Positions 885-17,405 of a DNA stretch of 64,000 nt are shown one piece after another. Source of the stretch: Escherichia coli (GTDB taxonomy: Bacteria; Pseudomonadota; Gammaproteobacteria; Enterobacterales; Enterobacteriaceae); assembly GCF_044324785.1 (NCBI RefSeq), contig NZ_CP172127.1. One strand, given 5' to 3'. Each line of letters begins with the position of its first letter. The first letter of the stretch is position 1. Under the pieces are notes generated by a model, which was not told the DNA's origin, made no database searches, and was given only the letters and a program-made list of their open reading frames with translations. The position numbers were made by a program, and so were the translations under genes.

Positions 885-1313
885 CTATTTTGTCTGGTTT
901 TTGGCTTCAAGTAGTTCTTTTAGCAGTAGATCGAAGTGCTCTCTTTTTTCTTTTAGCTCATTGATTAGTTTATTTTTTTCGCTCTCAGGCAGTCCTCTGA
1001 ATAGTTGCAGTAGAGCCTGTTCTTGTGGGGTTAGTTCTTGATTGTAATTACCGGGGTGTAGCGTGGATTCATCCAAATATTCTCCTTCATTCATGAAGAA
1101 AAAATGAACAGGGTATCCGGTCACTTTTGCTAGCTTGTCTAATTTATCTTTTCTTGGCGTTACCCCATTACACCATGCCTGAACTGATTGAGCTGTAACC
1201 CCAATATGGCGAGCTAACTCAGATTGAGACCAGCCTAAGTCTTTTAGAATCCGTTGTAGTCGGCTAGCAAAAGCCATGTTTTTCGTTTTTGTGTTCATAC
1301 CGTAAGGATACAA
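885..1313 (-). CDS. phage repressor, XRE-family HTH (CI-like, short form without S24 peptidase domain)
   Basis: HTH segment SQSELARHIGVTAQSVQAWCNG; divergent from a Cro-like gene; true start probably internal Met (1298 or 1277), possibly leaderless. Confidence 0.7.
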   Translation of the reverse strand: MYPYGMNTKTKNMAFASRLQRILKDLGWSQSELARHIGVTAQSVQAWCNGVTPRKDKLDKLAKVTGYPVHFFFMNEGEYLDESTLHPGNYNQELTPQEQALLQLFRGLPESEKNKLINELKEKREHFDLLLKELLEAKNQTK

Positions 1314-3190: not shown

Positions 3191-4595
3191 CGCGATTGCA
3201 CTGTACAGCGTTGACGCAGAACAGGCTGTTCTGGGCTGTCTGATGCTGAATACCGACCACGACAGAACCAATGCGGTATTTGCGTTACTGAAACCGGAAA
3301 CGTTTTATATCAATGCGCATCAGGTTATCTACCGGGAGATCAAAGGATTATTTCAAGCTGATAAACCAACTGACCTGATAACACTGACCGAACTGATGGA
3401 ATCGAAGGGGCTGTATGAGCGCGTGGGGGGATTCGCATACCTGGCTGAAATGAGTAAGGCGGCGATACCGGCCTCAATGGTCAACTACGCGAAAATTGTA
3501 CGTGAAAAAGCCATTCTTCGTTACGCCGTGGAAAAGTTGAATTCTTGTCTGGAGATTATGACCCAGCCTGCAGATATGACTGCTACTGACAGGATCAGCA
3601 CCGTTCAGCAAGTGATTGGACAGGTAGCTGAACATGCCCGTACCGGGCATAAGGGCGGTTTGCGTCCGGCAAGTGAAGTCGTCGATGACTGGATAGATGA
3701 CCTTGATCGCCGTTTCAATGATCCAGCACATGCAGCCGGACTAACGCTCGGAATCGAAAGCCTTGATCGCTTAATGGCACCAAAGCAGGCGTTAAGAGGC
3801 TCATTGGTCGTTATTGGTGCCCGGCCAAAAATGGGCAAGACAGCCGCGTTTAATAAAATTGCGGTGCATTTTGCTCTGAATCATCGTTTGCCGACGCTGG
3901 TATTTAGCCTGGAAATGACTGACAGAAGTCTCATTGAACGCATGGTTGCGCAGGAAGCAAAGGTCAATTCGGAGATTTTTTATCTTGGCCCTAACGATGA
4001 ATCTGAATTGAGTCTCGCAATAGCAAAGGCGGGGGAGATTGCCGAATCCAACATGATGATTGACAGCACGGCAGGCGTAACCCTTGCGCATATTGTCGCT
4101 GAATGCCGAAAGGTTAAGCGGATGCATGGCTCGGTTGGCCTGGTGGCAATTGACTATTTGACGCTGATGAAAACCGAAGCGGCAGAACGTCGGGATATTG
4201 CGTATGGCGATATCACAACCGGTTTGAAGAACCTGGCAAAAGAGCTGGATTGTGTTGTGGTCCTGCTGACGCAACTCAACCGAAAACTTGAAGAACGAGC
4301 AGATAAGCGGCCTAACCCGAGCGACAGTAAAGATACCGGGCAGATCGAACAAGATTGCGATGTCTGGATTGGCCTCTATCGTGATGCTGTTTATAACGAA
4401 AATGCCGACCCAAATCTCATGGAAATGTTGCTACGTCTGAACCGCGAAGGACCATCGGGAACAGCCTACGCCCTGATGAAAAATGGCTCAGTTATTGATA
4501 TCAGCGATGAGGAGGTTTATCGCCGTACCAACTACCGCTCAGAAAAAAATAAACGTTATTCCCGTAGCGATAATTCTCGCACAAATGAATTTTAA
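3180..4595 (+). CDS. replicative DNA helicase, DnaB family
   Basis: Walker A GARPKMGKTAA, DnaB-like N-terminal domain, 471 aa. Confidence 0.85.
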   Translation: MINNAIALYSVDAEQAVLGCLMLNTDHDRTNAVFALLKPETFYINAHQVIYREIKGLFQADKPTDLITLTELMESKGLYERVGGFAYLAEMSKAAIPASMVNYAKIVREKAILRYAVEKLNSCLEIMTQPADMTATDRISTVQQVIGQVAEHARTGHKGGLRPASEVVDDWIDDLDRRFNDPAHAAGLTLGIESLDRLMAPKQALRGSLVVIGARPKMGKTAAFNKIAVHFALNHRLPTLVFSLEMTDRSLIERMVAQEAKVNSEIFYLGPNDESELSLAIAKAGEIAESNMMIDSTAGVTLAHIVAECRKVKRMHGSVGLVAIDYLTLMKTEAAERRDIAYGDITTGLKNLAKELDCVVVLLTQLNRKLEERADKRPNPSDSKDTGQIEQDCDVWIGLYRDAVYNENADPNLMEMLLRLNREGPSGTAYALMKNGSVIDISDEEVYRRTNYRSEKNKRYSRSDNSRTNEF

Positions 4596-4598
4596 CCA

Positions 4599-4636
4599 CG
4601 CCTGACCAGCGTGAAATAACCGAGGAAAGACCAATG
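4599..4636 (+). repeat. conserved ~40-bp intergenic motif, copy 2
   Basis: matches 2164..2204 with a shorter internal spacer. Confidence 0.55.
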
Positions 4637-5044
4637 ACCACCACTCCAGGCAAATTAGAGTACCCGTCGGACAAAGGACACATAGACGACGGTAAAAACT
4701 ATCTCGACGTCATTTTGTGGAATATGAACGTCGGGCCACGTGCGCGCACTCGCGCGGTTTTTGTGCCAAGACCTAAAGCAGGCAATTTTTCAACCCCTGC
4801 TAAGCCTGCCCGTCAGGCATCCGTAGCCGCAGCGCCAGCAGTGAAACGTAAGGGCAAAACGCACACCGGGATCGCGATTCGCAGAAATGGTGAGCGGCAA
4901 GTAAAACTCCACGAAACAGCGACAACCTGGTGTGCTTCACCGCATGAAACTTACGACAAGATAACCGGGCAGCGCATTGGTGCGCCTGGTCGCTGTCGCC
5001 TGCTGTTGAGTTCCATCACTCCGATAGCAAAGAAAGGGGCGTGA
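4634..5044 (+). CDS. hypothetical protein (136 aa), basic C-terminal half
   Basis: ORF with RBS in conserved motif. Confidence 0.45.
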   Translation: MTTTPGKLEYPSDKGHIDDGKNYLDVILWNMNVGPRARTRAVFVPRPKAGNFSTPAKPARQASVAAAPAVKRKGKTHTGIAIRRNGERQVKLHETATTWCASPHETYDKITGQRIGAPGRCRLLLSSITPIAKKGA

Positions 5045-6444: not shown

Positions 6445-7137
6445 TTGGCGTCGCTGGTGGTGATGAAAAAAACACTAAGTGAGGCCACTGCGATGACAAT
6501 CCAAATATCTGCGGAATCCCTTTCTCCGCTACATCATAACCAACTTCCCGTCATCACTACTGAATTGCTTGCCAGTTTGTATGGCACGGAAGTAAATGGT
6601 ATCCAGCAAAACTTCAAGCGCAACATCGCCAGATTTGTCGTAGGAAAGCATTTTTTTAAGCTGGAAGGTAATGAATTACGCGACTTCAAAAACAGACTGA
6701 CAGATAGTCAGTCAGTTGCTAAACATACCCGATCCCTCATTCTCTGGACAGAACGCGGCGCAGCTCGCCATGCCAAAATGCTGGAAACAGAACAGGCCTG
6801 GGAAGTTTTCGAAAAGCTGGAAGATTGTTATTTTAGCCAGCGTCCAGAGAGGCGGAGTACAACTACCGATGACCGTACTCCCTTACGTGATGCCGTTAAT
6901 ATGCTGGTCGGTAAGAAAGGCATGATGTATCCCGATGCCTACACCATGATTCATCAACGCTTCGCCGTCTCTCACATAGAACAACTGTCACAGACGCAAA
7001 TGTTAGAGGCGATTGAATACATCCACTGCCTGCTACTCGATGAAAATCAACCAACCATTCCAGATCACCACTATCAAAAATGGAAAAGTGACCAGAATGC
7101 GCCATGTTGCCAAAGGCGAACATCTGATGACCTTTGA
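6445..7137 (+). CDS. antirepressor-like protein with ORF6N-type N-terminal domain
   Basis: ELLASLYGTEVNGIQQNFKRNIARFVVGKHFFKLEGNELRDF pattern; C-terminal 30 aa look unnatural, possible frameshift into 7013..7270. Confidence 0.5.
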   Translation: MASLVVMKKTLSEATAMTIQISAESLSPLHHNQLPVITTELLASLYGTEVNGIQQNFKRNIARFVVGKHFFKLEGNELRDFKNRLTDSQSVAKHTRSLILWTERGAARHAKMLETEQAWEVFEKLEDCYFSQRPERRSTTTDDRTPLRDAVNMLVGKKGMMYPDAYTMIHQRFAVSHIEQLSQTQMLEAIEYIHCLLLDENQPTIPDHHYQKWKSDQNAPCCQRRTSDDL

Positions 7138-9398: not shown

Positions 9399-10064
9399 AT
9401 GAAAGCCGACAACTTAAGAATTATAGAGAATGGCAAATATGTTTTCGATATGTTCTTGGATACTGGTGAATTTTACTATACAAGTCATGCCTTTGACACG
9501 AGAGAAGATGCAAAAAGCTGGATGGAAGAATGGCAGATTTGGGCAAATAATGTATCGAGTGGGAAAGTAAGTAGTATTTATTATATTTTACAAGTGCCTG
9601 ATACTTGGGCCGGTTCTTCAGATAAAAATAACCCTTACTCGGGACTTTATGTGAAAATAGGGCGTTCCAATAATGTGCTAAAAAGGTTGTCTAACCTGCA
9701 GACAGGTGCATTTGGTCAATTAATATTACACGCTTTGGAACCTGGTGGTTCAGAAAAAGAAAACTATCTTCATGAAAAATTTAGCAACGAAAGACGTCAA
9801 GGTGAATGGTTTGTTTGTACTAAGGAACTTACCAAGCATATATTTACAACATGGTTTAAAAACAAAATGCTCCCACCAGAACATCAAATAAAAATAATGC
9901 AGCTCGCAGAAAGAATAGGTATTTATTCGCATGTTCATACACTAATGGGGGGGAAGCCAGACTTAGTAAACCCATCTATTAGTGAACCTTGGGAATGCGA
10001 AAAATATGTTTTGGTTGATATGATTTATAGCTCTTTAGCAAAGCAAGTTAATCATAAAAAATAA
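9399..10064 (+). CDS. T5orf172 (MUG113, GIY-YIG-like) domain protein
   Basis: YVKIGRSNNVLKRLSNLQTG ... LHEKFSNERRQGEWF matches the T5orf172 signature; unknown flanking regions. Confidence 0.6.
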   Translation: MKADNLRIIENGKYVFDMFLDTGEFYYTSHAFDTREDAKSWMEEWQIWANNVSSGKVSSIYYILQVPDTWAGSSDKNNPYSGLYVKIGRSNNVLKRLSNLQTGAFGQLILHALEPGGSEKENYLHEKFSNERRQGEWFVCTKELTKHIFTTWFKNKMLPPEHQIKIMQLAERIGIYSHVHTLMGGKPDLVNPSISEPWECEKYVLVDMIYSSLAKQVNHKK

Positions 10065-10898: not shown

Positions 10899-11504
10899 TT
10901 ACTTGCGTTTAAAAAGGTATTTTGTCACGACCAGCACGAGGCCGAATACCTCTGTCAAAGTACCGCCCATGTACAACTGGAGCGTTAAGTCTTTAAATAC
11001 AAGCCATTCAGCACCAGTGGCAAAAAATACACCATTCATTATCAAAAGCTGGCAAGCAAGGATAATAAGGAACCATTTGCCATAGCGTTTTTTTAGATCG
11101 ATTTCAGCTTCAAAATCTTTGTTGTTGAGTTGTTTGCGCTCATGCTCAGTATCAAGTGAATTCACCTGTTTCACAGATGTGAACTCGGTCAAGATTTTAC
11201 TCTCAGTACGGGTGACTTGTTGAGAGGGGGTAGGAATTGGAATTCTTTTGATTGACGCAGCTACAGCCATTTTGCGAGCTTCGGCAGCTCTTTTTCTGGC
11301 TATTCCGTGAATACGGGCAGACGGTTTTTTTGGAGCATGCGAAACCTTTGTCTGAGGTGAAGTTTCGTCAGGAGACTGAACCGGAGTTTCATCCTCCTCC
11401 GGCTCAACCTCTTCTGCTAACTGACGGTGTAGGTTGAGGGAATCCTTCAGTCGGCGTGCAACTTCCTGTTTGAAACGGCTGTTAAAATCGTCATCCGATG
11501 GCAT
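10899..11504 (-). CDS. membrane-anchored protein (charged N-terminal region, two C-terminal TM helices), partner of ImmA-like peptidase
   Basis: start 9 nt after peptidase stop, RBS inside peptidase 3' end; hydrophobic segments WFLIILACQLLIMNGVFFATGA and LVLVVTKYLF. Confidence 0.55.
   Translation of the reverse strand: MPSDDDFNSRFKQEVARRLKDSLNLHRQLAEEVEPEEDETPVQSPDETSPQTKVSHAPKKPSARIHGIARKRAAEARKMAVAASIKRIPIPTPSQQVTRTESKILTEFTSVKQVNSLDTEHERKQLNNKDFEAEIDLKKRYGKWFLIILACQLLIMNGVFFATGAEWLVFKDLTLQLYMGGTLTEVFGLVLVVTKYLFKRK
10901..10978. repeat. direct repeat copy B (~78 bp), coding for the C-terminus of 10899..11504
   Basis: pairs with 7301..7377. Confidence 0.8.
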
Positions 11505-11513
11505 TCTAAAGCG

Positions 11514-12002
11514 TTACCCCAACCTCAAGTTCTTTAAACGATAAGTCATCGCATCGTCAGATACGCCAAAATGATGCGCCATTATATAACTTGGTTGGCC
11601 GTCAGCGTGCAGTTTTCTGACCTCATCTACCGGCATCAGAAGTTCTGCTGCGAACTTGTTCGCAAAAATTTCATCAGGATGCGTTCCGGCGCTTGCGGTT
11701 TCGCCACGTAAATCAACGTACTCATATTCATCGCTATGCGATGCTTGCCGGGCGATGTAATGCCCCAACTCATGCCCACATGAAAAACGTTGACGAACTT
11801 TGTTGTCATCACTGTTTAGAAAGATCGCTGGATCTTGATCTTTTTGTTTAATCAGTGCGCCAGAAACTTTCCCAGGAAGATCGGTAATAAAAACATCTAA
11901 TCCCATGTCGTGAGCAATTTTCGCTGGATCAACAGGGAAACCACGCCCGCACCAGAACGTGTCCAGCACTCGCCGGGCGTGCTCTCTTGGGTTGGTAGCC
12001 AT
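11514..12002 (-). CDS. ImmA/IrrE-family zinc metallopeptidase (DUF955)
   Basis: HELGHY zinc-binding motif and downstream EIFANKFAAELLMP segment. Confidence 0.7.
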   Translation of the reverse strand: MATNPREHARRVLDTFWCGRGFPVDPAKIAHDMGLDVFITDLPGKVSGALIKQKDQDPAIFLNSDDNKVRQRFSCGHELGHYIARQASHSDEYEYVDLRGETASAGTHPDEIFANKFAAELLMPVDEVRKLHADGQPSYIMAHHFGVSDDAMTYRLKNLRLG

Positions 12003-12094: not shown

Positions 12095-12435
12095 TGGTAC
12101 GATATTAACTGTTAGTAGTAAAGTCTTCCAGATAAATCACTTTAAAATCGTGTGAATTGCTTGCTTTTTACGCTGCATTGTGGATGGCTCAATGTTTCCA
12201 GTAAAAACATACATGATAATCATGACATTAGTGGTTTTTTAGGCGTCCATCTGTTTCTTAAAAAAATGGATGCCACAAGCGCCCGGATGAGAACAGGAAG
12301 GGAAGGCTATTACATGTGTGATTTATTACATCTGTAAAAAAATACAGATCTAACCTGATCTTTTCATTGAAGTTTTTCTTGGTCCTGGATAGGATCTGGA
12401 GGTTGCGAAGATTTTAGAGTCGCATCAAAGGGAAA

Positions 12436-12461
12436 GCCCTGACAGCGCCAACTGTCAGGGC
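12436..12461. other. perfect 10-bp stem hairpin (gccctgacag / ctgtcagggc) in a 567-bp non-coding stretch
   Basis: inverted repeat with 6-nt loop; T-rich flank on minus strand. Confidence 0.5.
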
Positions 12462-12569
12462 CATACAAAAACATCGGTTAATGCTTTCGTTGAGATCTCG
12501 GTTTGGGAGATTACCTCAACCGGGATCCCGTGTAAAGCATTCATTGCCGAAAATGATATAGGTCAATGA

Positions 12570-12848
12570 ATGAAACACATCTGTAAAAAGTCACATCGTC
12601 ACGACAGTATGTTTGATGTTCTTTCCGCAAATCAGGGGAACGTTGGGCGGCACAAATGTTGTGGATGTGCCTATGATAAAGGTATGTGGCACGCATTAAT
12701 TGGCGTTCCACGTGCGGTTGATGACTCTGTTTTAGGTGATTTGCCCGAAAGCCAGGCCGGGCATGTACGTCATAAAGATGCTTTTGAAGCATATAACATG
12801 GGATATGACCATGGGATGCATAAAAAAGCCTACGGCATGGCCTCATAA
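12570..12848 (+). CDS. hypothetical Cys/His-containing protein (92 aa)
   Basis: ORF followed by a clear intrinsic terminator; antisense ORF 12541..12936 judged spurious. Confidence 0.45.
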   Translation: MKHICKKSHRHDSMFDVLSANQGNVGRHKCCGCAYDKGMWHALIGVPRAVDDSVLGDLPESQAGHVRHKDAFEAYNMGYDHGMHKKAYGMAS

Positions 12849-12868
12849 CCAGGTGTAACTTATTAACT

Positions 12869-12896
12869 AACCCGCTTCGGCGGGTTTTCTTTTTTA
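12869..12896 (+). terminator. intrinsic terminator
   Basis: aacccgcttcggcgggtt hairpin followed by ttcttttttat. Confidence 0.7.
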
Positions 12897-12966
12897 TAGA
12901 ACCCTGCGATGTGAAAACGAATAATAAATTGTGCAAATAGTGCAGTTTTTATTATTCGAGGTAATT

Positions 12967-13608
12967 ATGAAAACCTTCTATGAGGGCTGGCCTGAAACTT
13001 TCGTTAGCCGGTTAGATATGTTACGGGCGTTGGATGATCGCGGTTCGACCCGGAGGCTCTATCTTGAGCGGACCGGAGCAATATTTGGCGCTCTGGCAGA
13101 AGAGATACGTACAGCCGTTGCCGGGCATCCTGAAACTGACGCGAGTGAACTTGATATCGGGCCGCTATATCGCTATTACAAACGTGGAGAAAAGGGGGAT
13201 CCGCTGGCTGACTTACTTATTAAATTGGCTCCACCAACCTGTGAACGGGTTCGTATATCTCCTGAAGTGTACACAATCCCGTATCTGTTTTTTGCACTGT
13301 TGATAGCGCAAGGCGCTGACAACGATGCCCGAGATTTTTTCAATATGATGATGCGACCGTTGATCATCGCCTACCGCTTCAAACAACTGGCGCGCTACCT
13401 TGGCACGAAGGGCGGAGGACGACCACAGCACAGATTAAAAAGTGAAGCCATTGAACTGGCTGATCGTTTTTTTACTGAAAACCCGACTGCGCCATTATCG
13501 CGTGGTGTGCAATACATATCCGGTATTTTTGTGGCGAAATACTCCGATCCACCTGCAGCCTCGACGATTAGAAAATGGTTAATTTCAATTTACAGGAGTG
13601 ATAAATAA
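12967..13608 (+). CDS. hypothetical protein (about 213 aa from internal ATG with GAGGT RBS)
   Basis: ORF 12931..13608; better start at MKTFYEGW; no recognisable domain. Confidence 0.45.
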   Translation: MKTFYEGWPETFVSRLDMLRALDDRGSTRRLYLERTGAIFGALAEEIRTAVAGHPETDASELDIGPLYRYYKRGEKGDPLADLLIKLAPPTCERVRISPEVYTIPYLFFALLIAQGADNDARDFFNMMMRPLIIAYRFKQLARYLGTKGGGRPQHRLKSEAIELADRFFTENPTAPLSRGVQYISGIFVAKYSDPPAASTIRKWLISIYRSDK

Positions 13609-13759
13609 TGACCATAAACGGTTTAATCCCCTATAAAACCGTTTAATAAAATTCACGACGTGAATATAATTGTTCATTATTCCCTCATTGTATCTGGCGT
13701 TATGACAAATGCCATAAAATACTGTATAAATGTACAGGCGGTGGCGTTAGGGGGAAGAC

Positions 13760-13939
13760 ATGAATATTCAAGAATCTATAGGCGAACTACCGGAAACATG
13801 CCGGGCTGTTATCAAGCGTAAGGACGGACACATCGTTGGTGTGCGTGTTCTGACTGATGATGAACGGATTGCCAGCCTGATGGCGTTTCTCGAGTTGGCA
13901 GAAATAGCTGGATATACTATTACACCCCCTGACGCGTAA
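13760..13939 (+). CDS. hypothetical small protein (59 aa), below ORF-track threshold
   Basis: GGGGGAAGA RBS then ATG; translation MNIQESIGELPETCRAVIKRKDGHIVGVRVL... Confidence 0.35.
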   Translation: MNIQESIGELPETCRAVIKRKDGHIVGVRVLTDDERIASLMAFLELAEIAGYTITPPDA

Positions 13940-14016
13940 AACACGGTATAATATCGGTGCTGGATTGAACACCCGGCACCATTTTCTGAACACTGCCGCG
14001 CCACCTGGAGTTAACC

Positions 14017-14613
14017 ATGGCGCAGCATTCATTTATCAGGGTATCCGGCGGTTCGCTAATACCCGCGACACCAGACACGCAACGCTGGTTGACTGAACGA
14101 GTCAAACCAGGTGCTGTTGTGTATGCAGATTTCAAACAGGCGCGTAATCCCGCGTTTCATCGTAAATTTTTCTCACTTCTCAACCTGGGCTTTGATTACT
14201 GGCATCTCTCCGGAGGGGCTATTTCTCCTGCAGAGCGCGAACTGGTTCACGGCTACGTTAAGTTACTGGCTTATTACGGTGGGCATGGTGATGTCATGGC
14301 TGAGCTGGCTGATCAGTATCTTCTCGATGAGTCGGAAAAGCGCGCGGGGAATATCAGTGCGGTTAAGTCGTTCGAGGCGTTTCGCGCCTGGGCGACTATG
14401 GAAGCTGGATTTTATGACGTTCATCAGATGCCAGACGGCAGTGTGATGCGCGTACCTCGTTCAATCTCGTTTGCTGCGATGGACGATCTTGAGTTCGGTC
14501 AACTGTATTCAGCCGTTTTAGATGTGCTGTGGAATTATATTTTGTTCCGCACGTTTGCCTCTCAGGAGGCCGCTGAAAATGCCGCCGCGCAGCTGCTGGA
14601 TTACACATCATGA
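14017..14613 (+). CDS. DUF1367-family phage protein (YbcN-like, nin-region type)
   Basis: position upstream of YbcO-like and Q-like genes; sequence pattern recalled from DLP12 ybcN homologues. Confidence 0.5.
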   Translation: MAQHSFIRVSGGSLIPATPDTQRWLTERVKPGAVVYADFKQARNPAFHRKFFSLLNLGFDYWHLSGGAISPAERELVHGYVKLLAYYGGHGDVMAELADQYLLDESEKRAGNISAVKSFEAFRAWATMEAGFYDVHQMPDGSVMRVPRSISFAAMDDLEFGQLYSAVLDVLWNYILFRTFASQEAAENAAAQLLDYTS

Positions 14614-15671: not shown

Positions 15672-15935
15672 GAATCAGGAAAAATCATGTCTGAACCTCT
15701 AACCGCTGGCGTTGCTGCTGGCTCGGCGGGGGTGACGTTTGCTGCGTTATTTCCTGAGGCAACACCTGCAGTGATGATCTGTGCGCTGGCAGGCGCAGCT
15801 CTCTATGTGTTGTCGTCCGGGCAGCATCGATTCTGGAAGCAGGTTAGACTGGCCCCCTGAATCTCCAGACAACCAATATCACTTAAATAAGTGATAGTCT
15901 TAATACTAGTTTTTAGACTAGTCATTGGAGAGCAG

Positions 15936-16301
15936 ATGATTGATGTCTTAGGACCGGAGAAACGCAGACGGCGTACTACACAGGAAAAGATCGCTATTGT
16001 TCAGCAGAGTTTTGAACCGGGAATGACGGTCTCCCTTGTTGCCCGGCAACACGGTGTGGCAGCCAGCCAGTTATTTCTCTGGCGCAAGCAATACCAGGAG
16101 GGAAGTCTTACTGCTGTGGCCGCAGGAGAGCAGGTCGTTCCTGCCTCTGAACTTGCTGCTGCCATGAAGCAGATTAAAGAACTCCAGCGCCTGCTCGGCA
16201 AAAAAACGATGGAAAATGAACTCCTTAAAGAAGCCGTTGAATACGGGCGTGCAAAAAAGTGGATAGCGCACGCGCCCTTATTGCCCGGGGATGGGGAGTA
16301 A
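15936..16301 (+). CDS. insC: IS2 transposase OrfA (InsC)
   Basis: [53 protein letters not shown]. Confidence 0.9.
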
Positions 16302-17164
16302 GCTTAGTCAGCCGTTGTCTCCGGGTGTCGCGTGCGCAGTTGCACGTAATTCTCAGACGAACCGATGACTGGAAAGATGGTCGCCGCAGCCGTCACTCAG
16401 ATGATACGGATGTGCTTCTCCGTATACACCATGTTATCGGAGAGCTGCCCACGTATGGTTATCGTCGGGTATGGGCGCTGCTTCGCAGACAGGCCGAACT
16501 TGATGGTATGCCTGCGATCAATGCCAAACGTGTTTACCGGATCATGCGCCAGAATGCGCTGTTGCTTGAGCGAAAAACCGCTGTACCGCCATCGAAACGG
16601 GCACATACTGGCAAAGTGGCCGTGAAAGAAAGCAATCAACGATGGTGCTCTGACGGGTTCGAGTTCCGCTGTGATAACGGAGAAAAACTGCGAGTCACGT
16701 TCGCGCTGGACTGCTGTGACCGTGAGGCACTGCACTGGGCAGTCACTACGGGCGGCTTCGACAGTGAAACAGTACAGGACGTAATGCTGGGAGCGGTGGA
16801 ACGCCGCTTCGGCAACGAGCTTCCGGCGTCTCCAGTAGAGTGGCTGACGGATAATGGTTCATGCTACCGGGCTAATGAAACACGGCAGTTTGCCCGGATG
16901 TTGGGGCTTGAACCGAAGAACACGGCGGTGCGGAGTCCGGAGAGTAACGGCATAGCAGAGAGCTTCGTGAAAACGATAAAGCGTGACTACATCAGTATCA
17001 TGCCTAAACCAGACGGGTTAACGGCAGCAAAGAACCTTGCAGAGGCGTTCGAGCATTATAACGAATGGCATCCGCATAGTGCACTGGGTTATCGCTCGCC
17101 ACGGGAATATCTGCGGCAGCAGGCCAGTAATGGGTTAAGTGATAACAGGTGTCTGGAAATATAG
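16259..17164 (+). CDS. insD: IS2 transposase OrfB (InsD)
   Basis: 301-aa DDE transposase overlapping insC in -1 frame. Confidence 0.9.
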
Positions 17165-17405
17165 GGGCAAATCCACAGGTTATTTTCGCACTCATTTCGT
17201 TTGTTGGCGGTGTGTATTGCGCTGAGACAGCATCAGCCATCATTACCGGTATTCTGAACGCGGTGCTGAGTCACCTGAACCCTCCCGTAACAGTAAAAGT
17301 CTCTCCCGCCATTGGTGCACTGGTTGCATCAGTAATCAGCGTTACATCACTGTTGCGGATCATGTCACAAGCTCGTTTATGGAAATCAGATAAGGGGATG
17401 AAATA

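Follow-up and report, generated by a model that had tools for sequence, protein, structure and literature searches.

A putative SOS-induced antirepressor of the Rem/GftA kind and its upstream partner gene in the conserved backbone of a lambdoid Escherichia coli prophage, beside a swappable accessory gene

The stretch of Escherichia coli DNA analysed here (contig NZ_CP172127.1; 64,000 nucleotides, nt, hereafter the window) carries a lambdoid prophage of the E. coli type, in which three consecutive plus-strand open reading frames (ORF1, ORF2 and ORF3) precede a DUF1367 gene. On the grounds of its promoter, family and position, ORF3 is most likely an SOS-induced antirepressor that triggers prophage induction, and hence a core phage function and not cargo. 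Considering the three genes together, it is probable that ORF2 and ORF3 form an SOS induction module in the prophage backbone and that ORF1 is a separate moron. A preliminary description had taken the three as further defence or anti-defence cargo at the right edge of an accessory island. The reading frames are present as described, and each is conserved as a protein elsewhere. Their coordinates and those of the associated features are displayed in Table 1.

The promoter of ORF3 carries a LexA (SOS) box, TACTGTATAAATGTACAGGC, overlapping the -10 element. The box agrees with the consensus TACTG(TA)5CAGTA at 16 of 20 positions, its CTGT-N8-ACAG core is intact, and a search with the LexA pattern returned it with 0 mismatches (0.21 occurrences expected at up to 2 mismatches). 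The promoter itself is missed by the promoter scan, which demands T at position 6 of the -10 element. The box is found at the same place in GF131, E24377A and sequence type 131 (ST131). It is also kept before ORF3 homologues at 58% identity and before 51%-identical homologues in metagenomic phages (L010-13) whose flanks are otherwise unrelated, and it precedes a relative of 77 amino acids (aa) in Klebsiella. The loci with a conserved box are L001, L004, L006-9, L010-13, L026-30, L039 and L042. The ORF3 promoter therefore has the box geometry and conservation that characterize the LexA regulon, and LexA is predicted to bind there. The box, perfect over 13720-13737, had been missed in the preliminary description, as had a conserved hairpin at 13956-13980. 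This hairpin shows compensatory changes in L029 and L030, a similar one precedes irsA in Gifsy-2, and it may act as a partial terminator or attenuator. On the model of the Gifsy operon, transcription might continue past it into DUF1367 and Q.

Concerning the protein, ORF3 belongs to a family of 59-66-aa proteins and shares its PHROG, phrog_340, with Rem of the K-12 prophage Qin (4.4e-21), which has been shown experimentally to relieve DicA repression (PMC10448788). The ORF3-family profile aligned with Rem over nearly the whole ORF3 length (hhalign probability 88.7%, E 2.6e-6), and one relative (P0060) has a faint precomputed hit to the Pfam family Rem (PF27490). For GftA, the antirepressor of the Salmonella Gifsy prophages, phrog_340 was the third-best of 38,880 PHROGs in a single pre-stated comparison (E 0.23). 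The Klebsiella 77-aa protein bridges the two groups, with an hhalign probability of 94.8% to the ORF3 family and an E of 3e-7 to GftA. A confident match to a core phage function, which runs against the earlier view of these genes as cargo, was thus found in ORF3, as a predicted LexA-controlled antirepressor of the Rem/GftA type.

Distant ORF3-like genes (37-39% identity) were also seen in L003 at 4477-4659 (Stx2a phage Stx2_95) and in 20 other Shiga toxin (Stx) or E. coli phage records. They are located in the leftward early operon, with a cI of the S24 type at a distance of about 2 kb. This arrangement recalls fsoA of Fels-1, an antirepressor controlled by a phage repressor and not by LexA. 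Two long hits of the exhaustive ORF3 search, P0064 and P0069, were discarded as low-complexity repeat proteins.

The window and Gifsy-2 agree in the arrangement terminator, LexA box, antirepressor, IrsA/DUF1367, ..., Q; for Gifsy-2, the order terminator, LexA box, dinI, gftA, irsA has been published (PMC3121763). The order terminator, rem, ydfU, Q in Qin resembles it as well. Moreover, rem in Qin follows the same terminator sequence as found in the window, and the Gifsy-2 LexA box has a similar terminator ahead of it.

The repressor of the prophage, which is the predicted target of ORF3, is a short protein in which Pfam found a helix-turn-helix (HTH) domain and no S24 peptidase domain. Since it is HTH-only, it would not undergo RecA-stimulated self-cleavage, and an antirepressor would be needed. 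It is 32% identical to K-12 DicA over the full length (E 1e-17) and 33% identical to the repressor of Gifsy-1 and Gifsy-2 (GtgR) over 91% of the length. Furthermore, the repressor and ORF3 are each 100% identical to their counterparts in the ST131 prophage.

The distribution of the three genes was determined by megablast, using 12400-14100 as the query against 5,426 complete E. coli genomes. This segment was matched in 444 genomes, and ORF1 was covered in only 20 of them. In about 400 genomes, including many of ST131, the match starts exactly at 12869, the first base of the terminator stem, and the backbone without ORF1 is present in about 420 of the 5,426. A direct blastn comparison (breakpoints against L042 and L004) showed that 12259-12868 is swapped in ST131 for an unrelated segment with a 77-aa minus-strand gene, and in E24377A the same slot holds other cargo, beside which the ORF1 3' end survives as a decayed remnant. 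Since 12259-12868 is replaced elsewhere while homology restarts at 12869, ORF1 is the final item of the variable island, and the terminator, ORF2 and ORF3 belong to the backbone. The right edge of the island is at 12868/12869 and not at 13939, where it had been placed before. The terminator previously ascribed to ORF1 is real: its 7-bp stem (12869-12886) includes 5 G-C pairs, the 4-nt loop is GNRA-like and the tail reads TTCTTTTTT, as in Rho-independent terminators. However, it belongs to the backbone common to genomes without ORF1. The slot to its left is a small gene-swap hot spot. In the ST131 prophage (L042 12482-13000), the 77-aa minus-strand gene has its own hairpin.

The presence and absence of the genes across prophages also bear on the proposal that all three are accessory cargo, that is, defence or anti-defence morons with no core phage role. 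Pfam and NCBIfam gave no match for any of them, RefSeq and the phage records list all three as hypothetical, and they adjoin a clearly variable island with an ImmA/CapP-like protease and a T5orf172-domain protein. The comparison supports the cargo view for ORF1, which was variable (20 of 5,426 genomes at this locus, and swapped). However, ORF2 and ORF3 were constant, lying inside the backbone from 12869 whatever the cargo, and ORF3 combines the Rem antirepressor PHROG with a conserved LexA box and Gifsy-like synteny. In addition, PADLOC-DB models left ORF1, ORF2 and ORF3 unmatched at E <= 0.1, the neighbouring ImmA/IrrE protein alone hitting capP. That the whole group is cargo seems quite improbable.

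ORF2 has the strong ribosome-binding site noted before (GAGG 5 nt ahead of the ATG) and belongs to a narrow, enterobacterial family with 60-95% identity. At every locus retrieved through an ORF2 homologue, in E. coli, Salmonella and Klebsiella, 149-151 nt separate the end of ORF2 from a small downstream gene of the antirepressor superfamily that has a LexA box. This spacing is kept even at the Klebsiella locus, which has an antirepressor of the 77-aa type and, further downstream, NinB/NinE/NinG instead of DUF1367/YbcO. At these loci ORF2 constantly accompanies the antirepressor gene on its upstream side, and it is part of the backbone. ORF3 homologues without ORF2 exist (L010-13), and gftA and rem likewise lack it. 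The predicted model of ORF2 is all-helical (predicted local distance difference test, pLDDT, 74.7; predicted template-modelling score, pTM, 0.53), and its last three helices, past the GGGRPxHRLK motif, resemble an HTH of the transposase or homeodomain type. Pfam HTH_32 gave weak matches for three members of the family, and sequence-profile searches of the PDB with ORF1 and ORF2 gave chance hits only. These data weakly support a homeodomain-like HTH at the C-terminus and ORF2 as a putative DNA-binding protein. A RecX-like identity was rejected. Just upstream of the ribosome-binding site, an 18-nt imperfect inverted repeat (12918-12958, 83% complementary) overlaps the GAATAATAAAT block, which three lineages conserve at a distance of 48-50 nt from the downstream ORF2 start. 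This repeat could be a promoter/operator of ORF2 or a leader hairpin.

Between ORF2 and ORF3, a perfect 9-bp inverted repeat had been described at about 13615..13645. It is present, in fact with 10 perfect bp (13615-13624 / 13636-13645), and corresponds to two copies of the palindromic 9-mer AAACNGTTT. Four other lineages keep both copies and the exact 20-bp spacing while the spacer and the flanks diverge, and this pair and the LexA box are the only intergenic sequence common to the window and the Klebsiella locus. The motif is absent at loci without ORF2. It is also absent from the immunity region, and operators of the prophage repressor were therefore ruled out. The pair may be a candidate operator pair for ORF2, or a weak terminator. 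Another palindrome, ATTCACG-A-CGTGAAT, was set aside as probably incidental, being unconserved in relatives.

The second option belongs to a different explanation, in which 13615-13645 is an RNA hairpin that terminates weakly or stabilises the ORF2 transcript, and ORF2 is an ordinary nin-region early protein that stays near ORF3 through shared descent. The region folds at -13 kcal/mol (z = -4.2, better than 200 of 200 shuffles), six consecutive T come after the second copy in Klebsiella, a long distance separates the sites from the ORF3 promoter downstream, and the ORF2-bearing loci are all enterobacterial and fairly close to each other. However, the centre bases of the pair cannot pair in the four other lineages, out of five (C/C or A/C), while each copy keeps its AAAC/GTTT dyad and the spacing is maintained, and therefore two protein-binding dyads are favoured over a selected hairpin. 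The stem is also A/U-rich with only 2 G-C pairs, the copy in the window lacks a U tract, and ORF2 still adjoins a LexA-boxed antirepressor where the antirepressor type and the downstream genes differ. The hairpin explanation is possible, although on balance we find it unlikely.

Regarding the SOS induction module, the following sequence of events is proposed. In the lysogen, host LexA would sit on the box overlapping the ORF3 -10 element. Upon DNA damage, activated RecA would promote LexA self-cleavage, and the 59-aa ORF3 product would be made. This protein would bind the short, non-cleavable DicA/GtgR-like repressor and strip it from its operators, and removal of the repressor would open early lytic transcription. 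ORF2, as we infer, could bind the two AAACNGTTT palindromes past its own stop codon and tune the antirepressor promoter or incoming transcripts. The ORF1 cassette would have entered the variable slot that the backbone terminator bounds on the right.

Several points weigh against this proposal. LexA binding, the contact between ORF3 and the repressor, and induction are inferred. The similarity between ORF3 and Rem is remote (27% over 48 residues). The link to GftA is transitive, through the Klebsiella 77-aa protein; compared directly, ORF3 and GftA gave nothing by BLASTP and 4% by hhalign. In the Rem study, three other candidates of remote similarity (YpjJ, YeeT and YkfH) were inactive on DicA (PMC10448788), and therefore remote similarity alone is no guarantee of antirepressor function. 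In addition, a protein with an ORF6N domain is encoded in the window (6445-7137), and antirepressor is a common annotation for proteins of that type. As for ORF2, the AAACNGTTT sites precede the ORF3 transcription start by about 95-120 bp, a long distance for a repressor, and the co-occurrence of ORF2 and AAACNGTTT could be explained by linkage alone. Finally, the role proposed below for ORF1 is no more than a best guess.

Some of these points would fit a role of ORF3 as another SOS-regulated effector, such as a DinI-like modulator of RecA/LexA, a division inhibitor or a toxin, with induction driven from elsewhere, for instance by the ORF6N protein. In that case ORF3 would recall the Gifsy LexA operons, which also carry DinI, dispensable for induction (PMC3121763), and it would share the behaviour of YpjJ, YeeT and YkfH, its homology to validated antirepressors being remote. 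However, ORF3 aligns with Rem over nearly its full length, shares its PHROG and occupies the gftA slot beside IrsA/DUF1367, and the lack of a self-cleavage domain in the repressor calls for some antirepressor. Only two CTGT-N8-ACAG cores occur in the 64-kb window (the ORF3 box and one at 12332-12347), neither of them near the ORF6N gene, which is therefore not visibly SOS-coupled. A different effector role for ORF3 thus has little probability, and the antirepressor remains the preferred assignment.

Known systems provide a frame for this assignment. Like ORF3, Rem is a small protein. Its gene, too, is in the nin region, with the same terminator sequence ahead of it and Q a few genes further on, and the cognate repressor of Rem, DicA, is a short HTH protein of the type found in the window. 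On the other hand, Rem has 83 aa and about 27% identity to ORF3, no CTGT-N8-ACAG was seen upstream of it in the Qin region whereas ORF3 has a canonical LexA box, and Rem lacks the ORF2 partner and the DUF1367 neighbour that ORF3 has. The antirepressors GftA, GfoA and GfhA of the Gifsy prophages share the logic of a non-cleavable short repressor and a small antirepressor whose gene is separate from the immunity region and follows, in this order, a terminator and a LexA box (PMC3121763). The gftA gene and ORF3 also have the same position, immediately upstream of the IrsA/DUF1367 gene, and the repressors are homologous. The differences are that the Gifsy operon includes dinI, which the ORF3 operon does not, that gftA starts with GUG and ORF3 with ATG, and that Gifsy-2 has no ORF2. 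Tum of coliphage 186 and AntC of N15 are, as far as they are cited in PMC3121763, LexA-controlled antirepressors, in which SOS control acts through a LexA box on the antirepressor promoter and not through repressor self-cleavage, as proposed for ORF3; the phage types differ (P2-like and N15), and the proteins are larger than ORF3 or not known to be related to it. ORF3 is, on this evidence, a new LexA-wired member of the Rem/GftA kind, the mechanism being already known from Gifsy, 186 and N15.

ORF1 is a swappable moron, separate from ORF2 and ORF3. Its product is soluble, basic and contains Cys and His residues, and 37 homologues were found, in Enterobacterales. In an alignment of 22 of them, C5 and H9 are the first invariant residues. 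RefSeq calls an ORF1 orthologue (L001 9210-9449) as 79 aa from Met14, which drops both; since C5 and H9 are invariant, the 92-aa start is right and the 79-aa call too short, and the annotated start belongs 13 codons upstream. ORF1 is likely a zinc-binding protein. The AlphaFold2 model is confident, and a structure comparison found no structural neighbours for it, AlphaFold DB being outside that comparison; as modelled, the fold appears to be one not seen before.

Homologues of ORF1 lie between an S24-type cI and N in Cronobacter, Salmonella and other enterobacterial prophages (P0050 is named Yersinia enterocolitica), and in the nin region in Enterobacter. One of them adjoins a KilA-N/BstA_C gene, and others are near SieB. 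These homologues share the cI-N slot with the morons rexAB of lambda, bstA of BTP1 and sieB, which show neither sequence nor fold similarity to ORF1; ORF1 of the window differs from them in lying in the nin region and not beside the repressor. Because its homologues habitually occupy the cI-N slot, the best guess, by analogy, is that ORF1 could have an exclusion or defence-type function expressed in the lysogen.

The ORF1 cassette also includes a promoter and a structured leader of about 170 nt. An upstream region of about 240 nt is common to all ORF1 homologue loci, and the promoter is conserved at all of them, with TAGTAT or TATAAT as the -10 element elsewhere. The second CTGT-N8-ACAG motif of the window, upstream of this promoter, recurs at an identical offset in Enterobacter L025, whereas the cI-adjacent ORF1 subfamily has a degenerate version of it. 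The motif could be a LexA site, or it could belong to an A-tract UP element. Since it misses the conserved promoter and decays in that subfamily, SOS control of ORF1 is not claimed. The hairpin at 12435-12462 has four stem variants among the loci, with compensatory changes in 4 of 10 pairs. The promoter and leader (12367-12569 in the window) recur in the viral contig L033 (2314-2530), there ahead of an unrelated Bro-N/ANT-like gene of 259 aa that adjoins cI, and the leader is therefore a portable expression element; its occurrence suggests an expression cassette for cI-proximal morons.

ORF1 and its leader could alternatively be a cassette controlled by SOS or by an antisense RNA, similar to a type I toxin-antitoxin system, in which a minus-strand RNA ending at 12435-12462 blocks translation. 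The covariation of the hairpin, its terminator-like character on the minus strand only, the 9-bp repeat able to sequester the ORF1 start codon and the CTGT-N8-ACAG motif upstream would agree with this. However, ORF1 is a soluble, basic and probably zinc-binding protein and not a small hydrophobic toxin as in type I systems, the leader also precedes the unrelated Bro-N-type gene, and the upstream motif is degenerate in the cI-adjacent subfamily. In addition, no convincing minus-strand promoter was found for such an RNA, and an Rfam scan of 9-18 kb matched no known RNA. We consider this form of control unlikely.

A precedent for the possible role of ORF2 and the AAACNGTTT pair is the immI region of P22 (mnt-arc-ant, with the sar antisense RNA), where small DNA-binding regulators dedicated to the antirepressor gene are encoded on either side of it. 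Arc and Mnt have the ribbon-helix-helix fold, and Ant of P22 is large and not known to be LexA-controlled. ORF2 differs from Arc and Mnt in being a 213-aa helical protein with a putative homeodomain-like HTH and no known homology to them. A bolder reading, rather doubtful at present, would make ORF2 a third component of the LexA/antirepressor switch that binds the AAACNGTTT pair, gates the expression of the antirepressor and so gives the phage an input of its own next to host LexA. In its logic this would resemble Mnt and Arc at immI. The same reading would make ORF1 a new zinc-binding fold on a portable, possibly antisense-regulated leader, used again by prophages to express various genes in the lysogen.

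Table 1. Positions of the three genes, their regulatory elements and the surrounding prophage regions in the window (strand given where assigned; a point marks features without strand).
Feature	Position	Strand	Remarks
Immunity region	~0.9-2.2 kb		Short HTH repressor, YdaS-like Cro analogue, YdaT-like protein
Prophage repressor, predicted ORF3 target	885..1277	-	130 aa from M13 of the 142-aa ORF 885-1313; Pfam HTH_3 only
Replication genes	after the immunity region
Variable island	~6-12.8 kb		ORF6N protein, LprI-like lipoprotein, T5orf172-domain protein, ImmA/IrrE peptidase and membrane protein
Replaceable ORF1 cassette	12259..12868	+	Promoter, structured leader, ORF1; ~610 bp; blastn breakpoints vs L042, L004
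CTGT-N8-ACAG motif CTGTAAAAAAATACAG	12332..12347	.	Ends 20 nt upstream of the ORF1 promoter -35
ORF1 promoter, sigma-70-like	12367..12395	+	TTGAAG, 17 nt, TAGGAT; read from sequence
Hairpin of the ORF1 leader	12435..12462	.	12 bp, G+C-rich; z = -3.45; terminator-like on minus strand only, tail UUUCCCUUU
Second leader element	12480..12541	+	Outer stem AATGCTTT/AAAGCATT around TTGAGATCTC...GAGAT..CTCAA hairpin; sequence-conserved, 13 leaders aligned
9-bp perfect inverted repeat CATTCATTG / CAATGAATG	12538..12572	+	Could pair the leader with the ORF1 start codon
ORF1, 92 aa	12570..12848	+	Candidate zinc ligands C5, H9, C30, C33; conserved motifs GRHKCxGCA, SQAGxVRHKDAF
Intrinsic terminator AACCCGCTTCGGCGGGTT and T run	12869..12895	+	Left landmark of the conserved backbone
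ORF2, 213 aa, all-alpha	12967..13608	+	GGGRPxHRLK, then predicted three-helix homeodomain-like HTH at residues ~150-206
Two palindromic 9-mers AAACNGTTT	13616-13624 and 13636-13644	.	20 bp start to start; inverted repeat of the preliminary description
Palindrome ATTCACG-A-CGTGAAT	13651..13665	.	Not conserved in relatives
ORF3 promoter	13702..13730	+	-35 ATGACA (13702-13707), 17-nt spacer, -10 TATAAA (13725-13730); read from sequence
LexA (SOS) box	13720..13739	.	Overlaps the -10; within the 151-nt spacer before ORF3
ORF3, 59 aa	13760..13939	+	Predicted Rem/GftA-family small antirepressor; phrog_340 at 1.6e-20
Hairpin GGTGCTGG(N9)CCGGCACC and AUUUUCU	13956..13987	+	Between ORF3 and the DUF1367 gene; hairpin at 13956-13980
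DUF1367 protein, homologue of Gifsy IrsA (STM1020)	14017..14613	+	Pfam DUF1367 5.5e-77; 56% identity to Gifsy-2 STM1020; synteny anchor
Downstream block			DUF1367, YbcO/DUF1364, Q, lysis genes; the three ORFs fill the final 1.4 kb ahead of DUF1367

Concerning the neighbouring genes, a two-gene operon on the minus strand (10899-12002) encodes a 162-aa ImmA/IrrE M78 metallopeptidase (PADLOC capP, 1.6e-25) and a 201-aa protein with a hydrophobic C-terminal end (phrog_5346, function not annotated). The pair is conserved in the ST131 prophage, and no HTH partner gene was visible upstream of it in the window. It may consist of a DNA-damage-sensing protease and its effector. Within the variable island, the 221-aa product of 9399-10064 contains a T5orf172/MUG113 domain, which is GIY-YIG-like (Pfam 6.4e-10 and 4.4e-07). 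Further downstream, comparison with strain GF131 shows an IS2-like insertion element (15847-17175) with IS3-family OrfA/OrfB (ORFs 15891-16301 and 16259-17164) inside the first holin gene after Q, and the late/lysis operon of this prophage copy is probably disrupted by it.

These results have consequences for the annotation, in which ORF3 would become a putative antirepressor and ORF2 an antirepressor-linked HTH protein. The trigger of Rem in K-12 is unknown (PMC10448788), and the member of the Rem family described here is wired to LexA. Moreover, about 8% of the complete E. coli genomes, ST131 among them, have this backbone, and the identity of ORF3 would explain the induction of such prophages by DNA-damaging antibiotics. 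ORF3 would then be a single small gene whose deletion would lock the prophage.

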